Assembly: GCA_902500055.1 (NCBI GenBank)
Contig: GCA_902500055.1_4131.1
DNA: 64,000 nt
Origin: Escherichia coli
GTDB lineage: Bacteria; Pseudomonadota; Gammaproteobacteria; Enterobacterales; Enterobacteriaceae
Direction: 5' to 3' (one strand)
Under the pieces are notes generated by a model, which had not been told where the DNA came from, made no database searches, and worked only from the letters and a program-made list of their open reading frames with translations. Position 1 is the stretch's first letter; the number at the start of each line of letters is the position of its first letter. Position numbers and translations under genes: made by a program. Of this stretch, positions 62,420 through 63,762 are shown piece after piece.

Positions 62420-62950
62420 TTATTCAAGTATAGTAATTTCAATTAAACGAATTTCGATAAACTCGTTTTCAGTTTCCCATGACGTGCCAAATTTCTTTTC
62501 AAGTTCAGATTTCACATCACTTTTAAATTTTCCCATAGTATTAGGAATAATTTGTTTGGTTAATTTGTCGTAACCACAATAAAACATAGGTTTCTCCCTT
62601 CGAGATATTAGCTGAACAAAATCTTTTGGATATGCAGGTATGTTATGCATCACTTCATGAATACACTCAGTACTTGAATCTTGTACTTTGTACATTACAT
62701 TAAGTTTACCTCTGAAATTTGCGGTCATATCAACAATAGTTCCTTTACCCGATTTAAGTAAAGTTCCATTCTTTGAATGAGAGCAATAAAATACCTCATC
62801 ACCAATATTAGGATAATACAAATTAAATTCTAATTCAGATTTTACAGCCAGACGTTTGAAACTTTCTGCACGTTTTATATAAGTTTGGTGTTTGTTTATG
62901 TTCAAAAGAATATATCTCGTAGTAAGTGTGATATAACTGGCATAGTCCAT
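62420..62950 (-). CDS. Hypothetical protein (176 aa)
   Basis: ORF; 5' end overlaps methyltransferase gene by 49 nt. Confidence 0.5.
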   Translation of the reverse strand: MDYASYITLTTRYILLNINKHQTYIKRAESFKRLAVKSELEFNLYYPNIGDEVFYCSHSKNGTLLKSGKGTIVDMTANFRGKLNVMYKVQDSSTECIHEVMHNIPAYPKDFVQLISRREKPMFYCGYDKLTKQIIPNTMGKFKSDVKSELEKKFGTSWETENEFIEIRLIEITILE

Positions 62951-63762
62951 CCATTCCCAAGCATTTTGTATGCTTGTGTTGAACTACTAACTTTGAAGTA
63001 GTTTACATCAATTCCTTGCAACATGCAACACTCTTGTACTGTTAAATGACGATAGTCCACATTTCGCTTACCATGTTCAATAAGGAAATCCCTATCGATA
63101 TCAGGTTCTTTGAAAACAATTTGTCTTCTTGATTTATTAAAGTACTGGTTACAATCACCACCTTTAAAATAGTTAGCATCTATACAGTACGAAGCGGTTC
63201 TGTCAGTGTACCAACCATCTTCAATAATATCTTGAAGTTTAGGTGCATTGGATAATGCAGGTGGTATAAAAAGCTTATCAGTACTGTACCAGTAATATCT
63301 CTGCCTGAAGTGAGGCGTATAATGCTGGGAGTTTATCAGTACTGGTGCAACACCAATCTCTTTGTTGAATATATCCAATGATTCTTTTTTCATTTTAACA
63401 TTCTCAAACAAAAAATTCAAATTGGGATTTAAACTTTTTATGTGATTGAAAATGTCCATCATTGTGTAAAATAACATACTACGTGGATCTTGTAATCCTA
63501 ATTGTTTCCCAGCCGTTGATAGTCCTTGACATGGACTACCCCCGATAAGTAAATCAATTTTATCCCACTCAATATCCCATTCTCTCCATTTAGTTACATC
63601 ACCCAATTGGGTGATATCAGGAAAGTTAGCTTGGGATTCAGCTATTGCGTACTTGTCAATTTCGGATGAATAATATTTTTCAACAGGGATGCCAGCATCT
63701 TTTAATGCCATGTATCCCACACTCATCCCATTAAAAAGAGATAGTACTCGGATAGGTTTCAT
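62902..63762 (-). CDS. DNA (cytosine-5)-methyltransferase
   Basis: Motifs: FNGMSVG (I), GGSPCQGLS (IV, catalytic PCQ), FENV (VI), RQRYYW (VIII), GNGWTMPV (X). Confidence 0.8.
   Translation of the reverse strand: MKPIRVLSLFNGMSVGYMALKDAGIPVEKYYSSEIDKYAIAESQANFPDITQLGDVTKWREWDIEWDKIDLLIGGSPCQGLSTAGKQLGLQDPRSMLFYTMMDIFNHIKSLNPNLNFLFENVKMKKESLDIFNKEIGVAPVLINSQHYTPHFRQRYYWYSTDKLFIPPALSNAPKLQDIIEDGWYTDRTASYCIDANYFKGGDCNQYFNKSRRQIVFKEPDIDRDFLIEHGKRNVDYRHLTVQECCMLQGIDVNYFKVSSSTQAYKMLGNGWTMPVISHLLRDIFF

Follow-up and report, generated by a model that had tools for sequence, protein, structure and literature searches.

Short words that are spread over whole genomes and kept by selection are known to mark DNA for protein machines. 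Chi, the DNA uptake sequences and the FtsK-orienting polar sequences (KOPS) belong to this class, and they are asymmetric, strand-oriented and have known readers. The highly iterated palindrome HIP1 of cyanobacteria (GCGATCGC) is a perfect palindrome that is present at more than 10-fold excess in all reading frames and in intergenic DNA, is conserved above background, and occurs in genomes that also encode orphan methylases. Orphan C5-cytosine DNA methyltransferases are known from phages as well, including gp91 of 121Q, gp194 of RaK2, gp580 of CBB and gp043 of phi92. The 64,000-nucleotide stretch of DNA analyzed here (the window), from Escherichia coli assembly GCA_902500055.1, has counterparts of both. 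The hexamer AGTACT shares with HIP1 all of the properties listed, including the orphan methylases, which are found throughout the RaK2-like phages. The methylase gene of the window, at 62902-63762 on the minus strand, resembles those of the other phages in its PF00145 match, its order of motifs and the lack of an adjacent restriction gene, and an anti-restriction role is presumed there as here. The reading that we prefer, with a probability of about 0.55, is that the locus holds two separate things: a stand-alone C5 methylase and an independent, lineage-wide AGTACT signature.

The window comes from a jumbo coliphage. By megablast it belongs to the genus Asteriusvirus (121Q/PBECO4/G17/Sharanji-type phages of ~350 kb), and its identity to the closest records is 96% in the last 4 kb and 98-99% in the stretch from 20 to 44 kb. 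Identity to a second clade of the genus (BF17, TH47, EC.P1 and others) is ~83-85%, and relatedness to RaK2 (Alcyoneusvirus) and CBB (Mimasvirus) is seen at the protein level only. The wider-clade sample used below consists of ~324 kb from several RaK2-like lineages (RaK2, CBB, BF17, 121Q, Sharanji regions and IMG/VR contigs), and the host sample is 50 kb of E. coli K-12.

AGTACT is the most over-represented of the 4096 hexamers in the window. It occurs 193 times between positions 1 and 64000 (3.0 per kb; 152 coding and 41 noncoding or boundary sites), compared with 19.5 ± 4.4 in dinucleotide-preserving shuffles, whose maximum was 39. The ratio of observed to expected counts (O/E) is 10.1 with a Markov model of order 1, 2.6 with order 3, and 1.26 with order 4, a model that already includes the inflated pentamers. 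The initial annotation had reported dozens of copies in terminator stems, promoter spacers and coding sequence. All three locations were seen, the excess over a composition-matched model is plain, and "dozens" understates the count. Of the two extensions quoted there, TCAGTACTGA is present nine times, but the contiguous 10-mer CCAGTACTGG is absent and arises only when split over the arms of a hairpin, as GCCAGTACTnnAGTACTGGC.

The flanks of the sites are those of a symmetric word without orientation. In the window the base before the core is C at 49% of sites and the base after it is G at 42%, and CAGTACTG was observed 39 times, with 40 expected from independent single-flank frequencies. Such independent flanks are what a symmetric reader with additive half-sites would give. 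The 956 sites of the wider clade yield the extended consensus T-T-C-AGTACT-G-A-A, and single-mutation neighbors of AGTACT are mildly enriched, at 1-3.5 times expectation. Spacing is close to Poisson: the inter-site coefficient of variation (CV) is 0.97, no 4-kb bin is empty, and quasi-periodic spacing was not found in the window. HIP1 differs in being a quasi-periodic octamer of cells, while AGTACT is a hexamer of a virus with Poisson-like placement; and unlike Chi, the DNA uptake sequences and KOPS, AGTACT is palindromic and free of orientation.

Within genes the excess is made through synonymous codon choice and through a surplus of Ser-Thr and Val-Leu dipeptides. The 152 coding sites compare with 44.4 ± 6.0 (maximum 63) when synonymous codons are shuffled within each gene, and they are divided among the three reading frames as 69, 36 and 47. 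Ser-Thr dipeptides are spelled AGT-ACT in 69 of 138 cases, whereas codon usage predicts 20. The dipeptides themselves are also in excess, with 138 Ser-Thr (90 expected) and 163 Val-Leu (108 expected), while the reversed dipeptides Thr-Ser and Leu-Val are at expectation. The density of sites is 2.7 per kb in coding and 4.9 per kb in noncoding DNA.

The AGTACT excess is shared by the RaK2-like lineages. The ~324 kb of RaK2-like DNA contain 956 sites where 88 are expected (~11-fold), and the enrichment ranges across lineages from 10 to 13 times expectation, with ~3 sites per kb. Observed and expected numbers are 99 and 8.7 for RaK2, 129 and 10.1 for CBB, and 129/13.3 and 100/7.7 for two further Sharanji regions; BF17, 121Q and five 355-371-kb contigs from IMG/VR likewise have the excess. 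So does L027, a metagenomic contig of 6.5 kb that encodes a methylase of 61% identity, with 20 sites (2.1 expected) and no GCGC (8.5 expected). PA5oct, which is more distantly related, does not have the excess (3/14.4), and neither do phages whose methylase homologs are 51-56% identical (phi92 0/10.9, L011 0/2.7, L012 1/6.5, L024 1/2.3 and L025 2/4.2). The E. coli K-12 sample has 13 AGTACT sites (0.26 per kb) and 6.7 GCGC per kb, so the phage has AGTACT at ~12 times the density of the host sample. No description of an AGTACT signature was found in the literature on 121Q, PBECO4, phAPEC6, Sharanji, RaK2 and CBB or in a comparative review of jumbo phages, and a search for AGTACT, methylation and iterated palindromes in these phages gave nothing beyond a remark on RaK2 methylation. 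The AGTACT-rich, GCGC-free signature of RaK2-like phages is therefore apparently undescribed so far.

Two observations concern the phages that lack the signature. Taken together, phi92 (L003), L011, L012 and PA5oct (L016) have 4 AGTACT sites where ~34 are expected, a shortage suggesting that ScaI-type restriction is a real pressure, which adds to the surprise of finding the word enriched in RaK2-like phages. The PA5oct region from 100 to 150 kb, which has neither the AGTACT nor the GCGC signature, has over-represented words of its own: CTGCAG (15 vs 4.7) and TCTGCA/ATGCAG (~3.5-4 times expectation).

The second half of the signature is the complete loss of GCGC. The window has none where ~28 are expected, and the ~324 kb of RaK2-like DNA have none where 183 are expected (the window and loci L001, L002, L004-L010, L019, L020 and L027 are all free of it). 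GCGA, ACGC and CGCA are at expectation, so the loss is specific to the palindrome. GCGC counts are normal in phi92, PA5oct and the small phages with methylase homologs. Other palindromes are also scarce in the window. Of the 64 palindromic hexamers, 26 have no copy, including CCATGG (9.4 expected), TGGCCA (7.9), GGTACC (6.8) and GCATGC (6.4), and GATC, GGCC and CCGG are at about half of expectation. These gaps reflect broad restriction-site avoidance of the kind known from other phage genomes, to which the GCGC loss and the 26 missing hexamers conform. AGTACT shows the opposite behavior: a ScaI-type site that other phages avoid is 11-fold enriched here. That not one lineage has kept any GCGC suggests that the selective agent is obligate and not just occasional, and a putative phage-encoded GCGC-specific nuclease used against host DNA is one possibility.

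The gene at 62902-63762 (minus strand, 286 amino acids) is, judged by its sequence, an intact and genuine C5-cytosine methyltransferase. It matches PF00145 with E = 1.2e-33, and the motifs PCQ, ENV, QRY and GNGW named by the initial annotation are all in place. Motif I is FNGMSVG at residues 10-16 (S-adenosylmethionine binding; F10 and G12 are invariant in the alignment), motif IV is PCQ at 77-79 with the catalytic Cys78 (P77 and C78 invariant), motif VI is ENV at 120-122, motif VIII is RQRY at 153-156, and motif X is GNGW at 269-272. Further conserved residues lie in the motif IX/X region (R238/L240/E244/Q249/G250). Motifs I to X are in the canonical linear order, the matches to DNMT3B and M.HhaI span the full length, and the recognition segment is small and family-specific (residues ~185-235). 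Four AGTACT sites fall within the gene (63141-63748, with starts at 63141, 63280, 63338 and 63743), which is not an exceptional density.

The core of the enzyme is nearer to DNMT3 than to the M.HhaI or M.HaeII types. Among solved structures the catalytic domains of DNMT3A/B are the best matches for the single sequence (1e-24, compared with 1e-14 for M.HhaI), and a profile of ten family members gives 1.7e-34 for DNMT3B and 7e-28 for M.HhaI. Length (~285 amino acids), an LFDG motif I, a GGSPC motif IV and a short recognition region are common to the phage enzyme and the DNMT3A/DNMT3B catalytic domain, but the phage enzyme lacks the regulatory domains and has no sign of DNMT3-type dimer or tetramer interfaces. 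DNMT3A and DNMT3B methylate CpG, the same context that was reported for RaK2 DNA. This likeness was considered and rejected as evidence for a CpG target: in the profile, the recognition segment (positions 185-235) has no alignment to DNMT3, and the match splits into 2-184 and 236-278.

The methylase is an ordinary gene that was already known and annotated, and it is among the conserved genes of RaK2-like jumbo phages. Orthologs at 68-73% identity are found in RaK2, CBB and IMG/VR contigs of 350-370 kb, and every sampled member of the RaK2-like clade has one. It has been annotated as a cytosine methylase in 121Q (gp91), G17, Sharanji, phAPEC6, RaK2 (gp194) and CBB (gp580). The protein family is very large, with 7999 of 8000 scored candidates at E <= 1e-20.

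The methylase gene is also a hot spot of divergence. The window's allele is 82% identical to that of 121Q, against ~99.4% for the 6 kb around it. The differences are concentrated at residues 73-135 (GGSPCQGLS vs GGFPCQAWS) and 215-255, and both alleles are present in databases (P0001-P0005 and P0006-P0007), the window's being the rarer. In phage A4 (ON286972; L028:2732-4630) the orthologous methylase is interrupted by an intein of ~346 amino acids that includes a LAGLIDADG homing endonuclease and sits precisely at the junction of Pro77 and the catalytic Cys78 (...GGFP|CFPAGT...VVHN|CQAWS...). Homing at motif IV, or escape from it, could be the source of the mosaic allele of the window.

The conservation of AGTACT sites supports purifying selection on the word. 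Over 22.5 kb aligned to BF17 at 83% identity, 43 of the 65 alignable sites (66%) are intact, compared with 42% of all hexamers, a positional conservation above background that speaks for selection. The two sequences have 67 and 61 sites over the alignment, so that density is kept with some turnover, and ACTG is among the least divergent cytosine contexts (C/T) between the Asteriusvirus clades. Two other origins of the excess have been weighed. One is that AGTACT is a by-product of regulatory modules, duplicated genes, or codon or amino acid usage, with no selection of its own. The word does lie within repeated terminator hairpins behind RCC1-like paralogs and in a recurrent promoter design, and it is denser in noncoding DNA. 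However, 152 of the 193 sites are coding and occupy all three frames, shuffling that keeps the proteins and codon usage gives only 44 ± 6, the flanking sequences are diverse, and the RaK2 and CBB loci are equally enriched without the promoter design. The promoter and terminator by-product was rejected since the frame counts and the synonymous shuffling contradict it, and there is hardly any chance that the broader form is correct. The other is a mutational or repair drive, such as very-short-patch-like T:G correction or biased gene conversion, that creates AGTACT without selection on sites. The Dcm/Vsr system inflates CCWGG in E. coli, which is a precedent for word inflation, and the window phage has a C5 methylase. 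Nevertheless, the donor words AGTATT and AATACT, the products of deamination, show no depletion (O/E 1.05-1.21), a search with E. coli Vsr gave no homolog in the sampled DNA or in the RaK2-like records among 50,697 phage records, and existing sites are conserved beyond background. A drive of the Dcm/Vsr kind is not supported, and repair drive as a whole is very unlikely.

The methylase itself is an unlikely reader of AGTACT, and its target may instead be CpG. Bisulfite treatment of RaK2 DNA was reported to show 5-methylcytosine at CpG (m5CpG), and the only enzymes reported to cut this DNA were ones insensitive to Dam, Dcm, CpG and EcoKI methylation, both as data not shown (PMC3622015). The sole C5 methylase of RaK2 is gp194 (PMC3622015), the ortholog of the window's enzyme at 68% identity, and AGTACT contains no CpG. 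The recognition core (SYCIDANYFKGG...NKSRRQ) is shared by the methylase homologs of Asteriusvirus, phi92 and the small phages, with D187, R188, C193, D195, A196, Y198, K200, G202, Y207, K210, R212, R213 and Q214 invariant, and in the phages that share it outside the RaK2-like group (phi92 and the small phages) AGTACT is absent or at or below expectation. At synonymous third positions, C/T differences between Asteriusvirus clades are more frequent where the next base is G (0.62 vs 0.43, p = 6e-9; 0.64 vs 0.47, p = 5e-5). This ~1.4-fold CpG excess is consistent with CpG methylation, from which it would be expected, but it is not proof. Overall we put CpG-type specificity at roughly one half and specificity for AGTACT or GTAC at about one in eight.

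Several points weigh against a CpG methylase that is independent of AGTACT, and some of them favor pairing the two. The RaK2 methylation result was published as data not shown, in a sentence that is cut off (PMC3622015). GC-rich palindromes that contain CpG (CTCGAG, GTCGAC, ACCGGT, TCCGGA and GCGC) are still avoided, which would be unexpected if every CpG were protected. Polarized singleton substitutions among close relatives give a CpG ratio of 0.89 (984 changes, dominated by recombination), and among isolated substitutions 0 of 711 CpG positions changed (45 changes, an underpowered set). As the recognition segment does not align to DNMT3, the likeness to that enzyme is silent on specificity. 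If the C5 methylase did act on the cytosine in AGTACT, or in the GTAC at its center, enzyme and palindrome would form a functional pair that protects ~1000 ScaI-type sites per genome or marks phage DNA epigenetically. Every AGTACT-rich locus sampled carries an ortholog at at least 61% identity, and phylogeny cannot separate the two. Other phages avoid AGTACT (phi92 0/10.9, PA5oct 3/14.4), so that unprotected sites seem costly; this suggests that RaK2-like phages have to shield their ~1000 sites in some way, for which a methylase is the obvious means. HIP1, which is recognized by orphan methylases, is a precedent (PMC4390886, PMC5861425), although the C5 methylase here probably does not recognize AGTACT. 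The RaK2 bisulfite result names m5CpG and does not mention AGTACT (PMC3622015), and the recognition core is kept in homologs from AGTACT-poor genomes. In addition, Asteriusvirus genomes that are otherwise ~99% identical carry one or the other of two alleles with different catalytic-loop regions, a situation unlikely to be tolerated if ~1000 selected sites needed exact specificity. The link between enzyme and palindrome, which the initial annotation had offered as speculation, is thus not supported by the RaK2 methylation, the shared recognition core, the undepleted AGTATT and AATACT or the search for Vsr, and a functional pair is improbable.

By analogy with HIP1, AGTACT is likeliest to be a selected, phage-wide iterated palindrome whose reader is another protein, symmetric and either DNA-binding or DNA-modifying. 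The strict 6-bp palindromic core, the independent symmetric flanks and the Poisson-like placement in early and late regions point to a symmetric protein that binds double-stranded DNA and acts over the whole chromosome rather than in gene regulation. This protein, probably a dimer and distinct from the methylase, would read TTC-AGTACT-GAA on double-stranded phage DNA, and the sites would be kept for it. Either a DNA-binding factor or a further enzyme that modifies or nicks DNA could fill this role. Since other phages avoid AGTACT, ~1000 sites per genome probably need protection, which makes another modifying enzyme a natural candidate. One such candidate is a PF05869 Dam-family adenine methylase, the ortholog of Sharanji gp542, which is encoded in Asteriusvirus (173 amino acids, match 7.4e-32); its methylated sites would be a mark of self, or protected sites with another function. 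Adenine methylases are encoded by RaK2 and CBB as well, a palindromic core of strictly 6 bp with weakly enriched one-off variants is typical of type II restriction-modification recognition, and AGTACT needs protection if ScaI-like systems threaten. But the PF05869 protein has no PDB relative, phi92 has a small methylase annotated near its C5 gene and yet no AGTACT, and protection explains the tolerance of sites and not their 11-fold enrichment, so that this enzyme is a rather doubtful choice. A host protein, the nucleoid-occlusion factor SlmA, has a 12-bp site (GTGAGTACTCAC) with the identical core AGTACT (PMC3020112) and might bind phage sites such as TTCAGTACTGAA, resulting in titration or a block of division. 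In its favor, the trait was found in phages of Enterobacterales and not in the Pseudomonas phage PA5oct. However, a SlmA site must begin with G and T and have a purine as its third base (PMC3020112). Among the 1912 phage half-sites the base at -1 is C in 44% and G in just 9%, GTR flanks number 27 where 54 are expected (a two-fold depletion), and the ~324 kb contain 0 full SlmA-compatible sites. SlmA was rejected with the same core and the wrong flanks, and we see next to no likelihood in its favor.

In the reading of two separate systems, the methylase would modify the phage's own DNA during infection, most likely at CpG-containing sites. The self-methylated progeny DNA would then resist part of the type II restriction of its hosts, and methylation would complement the extensive avoidance of palindromes by the genome. 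AGTACT, together with the lack of GCGC, would give the phage chromosome a sequence identity very different from that of its host. A more elaborate proposal, which we regard as a long shot, is a two-part self/non-self code written in plain sequence, with a GCGC nuclease directed against host DNA, an AGTACT recruiter on phage DNA, and the C5 methylase as a third layer. If this were true, GCGC, which the phage lacks and the host has every ~150 bp, would allow host DNA to be destroyed with no need for self-protection, and AGTACT would bring in a phage protein to mark, protect or process phage DNA only.

The main interest of the locus lies in the composition signature and not in the methylase. The signature spans at least three genera of 350-kb phages and implies one or more sequence-specific readers that nobody has sought. 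If found, these readers could show how a large phage discriminates self from host DNA with ordinary bases and no nucleus-like compartment, and RaK2-like phages would become a second, experimentally tractable example of a highly iterated palindrome. The AGTACT-rich, GCGC-free signature also flags metagenomic fragments of this phage group, as with L027.

The genes next to the methylase do not include a restriction partner. The initial annotation had noted that no restriction endonuclease was evident beside the methylase, and this holds: the neighbors have no nuclease match and differ between phages. The adjacent open reading frame (ORF), called at 62420-62950 on the minus strand, encodes 176 amino acids (161 from a TTG start) and is an ORFan (phrog_28599). 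It had been described as an upstream neighbor overlapping by 49 nucleotides. It is in fact downstream in the direction of transcription, and the overlap stands only with the ATG at 62950, which is the start in the G17 record; the 121Q record has the TTG start and an overlap of 4 nucleotides. The protein has no Pfam, PHROG-function or PDB match to nucleases or other families, its four database homologs are all from Asteriusvirus, and its AlphaFold model is too poor for a fold search (mean predicted local distance difference test score 47). It was rejected as a restriction enzyme on the grounds of the missing family and PDB matches and the four homologs. Its C-terminal ~55 amino acids alone recur near the methylase in relatives, at variable distance. 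The genes that flank the methylase differ among RaK2, CBB, phi92, Asteriusvirus and the small metagenomic phages, and no pairing of the methylase with a partner gene is conserved across the relatives compared. A Pfam scan of 83 further ORFs of at least 150 amino acids from 142 kb of Asteriusvirus DNA found no ScaI-type, HinP1I-type or other restriction family, and the only nucleases were of the HNH/NUMOD4 homing type. A homolog of Arn, the McrBC inhibitor (CBB gp365), was not found in the window. With no nuclease partner adjacent or conserved, the methylase is an orphan, and the orphan state is usual for phage methylases.

Noncoding AGTACT sites have two recurrent uses. The first is in terminator stems, in which GCCAGTACTnnAGTACTGGC is followed by a T run. 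An intrinsic-terminator-like hairpin of this type (GCCAGTACTcaAGTACTGGC, then a T run) lies behind an RCC1-like paralog at 847-866 (plus strand), a second double-AGTACT hairpin is at 3231-3250 (plus strand), and versions with one arm degenerate are found near 4475, 5744, 6555 and 8977. A further hairpin, CCAGTACTattaAGTACTGG, is located between converging genes at 12126-12145 (minus strand). The second use is in sigma-70-type promoters, where AGTACT has a constant place within the spacer (TTGACA-N9-10-AGTACTGTATAAT). Promoters of this design are found on the minus strand at 17654-17681 (TTGACAaacacattcAGTACTGTATAAT), 28002-28029 (TTGACAacaattagtAGTACTGTATAAT), 32312-32339 (with the identical sequence kept in phage BF17), 51449-51477 (TTGACTaaatagttcAGTACTGATAAAAT, in which a second AGTACT abuts the -35 element) and 51929-51956. 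This design turned up only at Asteriusvirus loci and not at those sampled from RaK2 and CBB.

The first part of the window is a tandem gene array. Between 75 and 11468 on the plus strand there are 10-11 paralogs of 245-411 amino acids from the RCC1-like beta-propeller repeat family (PF25390/PF00415). Behind most of them come an AGTACT terminator-like hairpin (two are full copies, four have a degenerate arm) and an element resembling TAAATATAGTATAAT. The Sharanji region at 330-349 kb (L020:8000-27000) has ~30 similar-sized genes (150-200 amino acids) on one strand that lack a Pfam match, and it looks like another large tandem paralog array.

The window also contains a tRNA region with a group I intron. 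Genes for tRNA-Thr, Asn, Ser, Arg and Gly are located between 47.7 and 54.0 kb. The catalytic intron, at 50167-50481 on the minus strand within the tRNA cluster, matches Rfam RF00028 with 99 bits (E = 2e-25), and an ORF of 234 amino acids adjoins it at 49401-50102 (minus strand). Between two small genes of the same region, ~340 nucleotides at 51100-51440 are richer in GC and free of ORFs. They have no Rfam match at the gathering threshold and could be a structured RNA or a decayed element.

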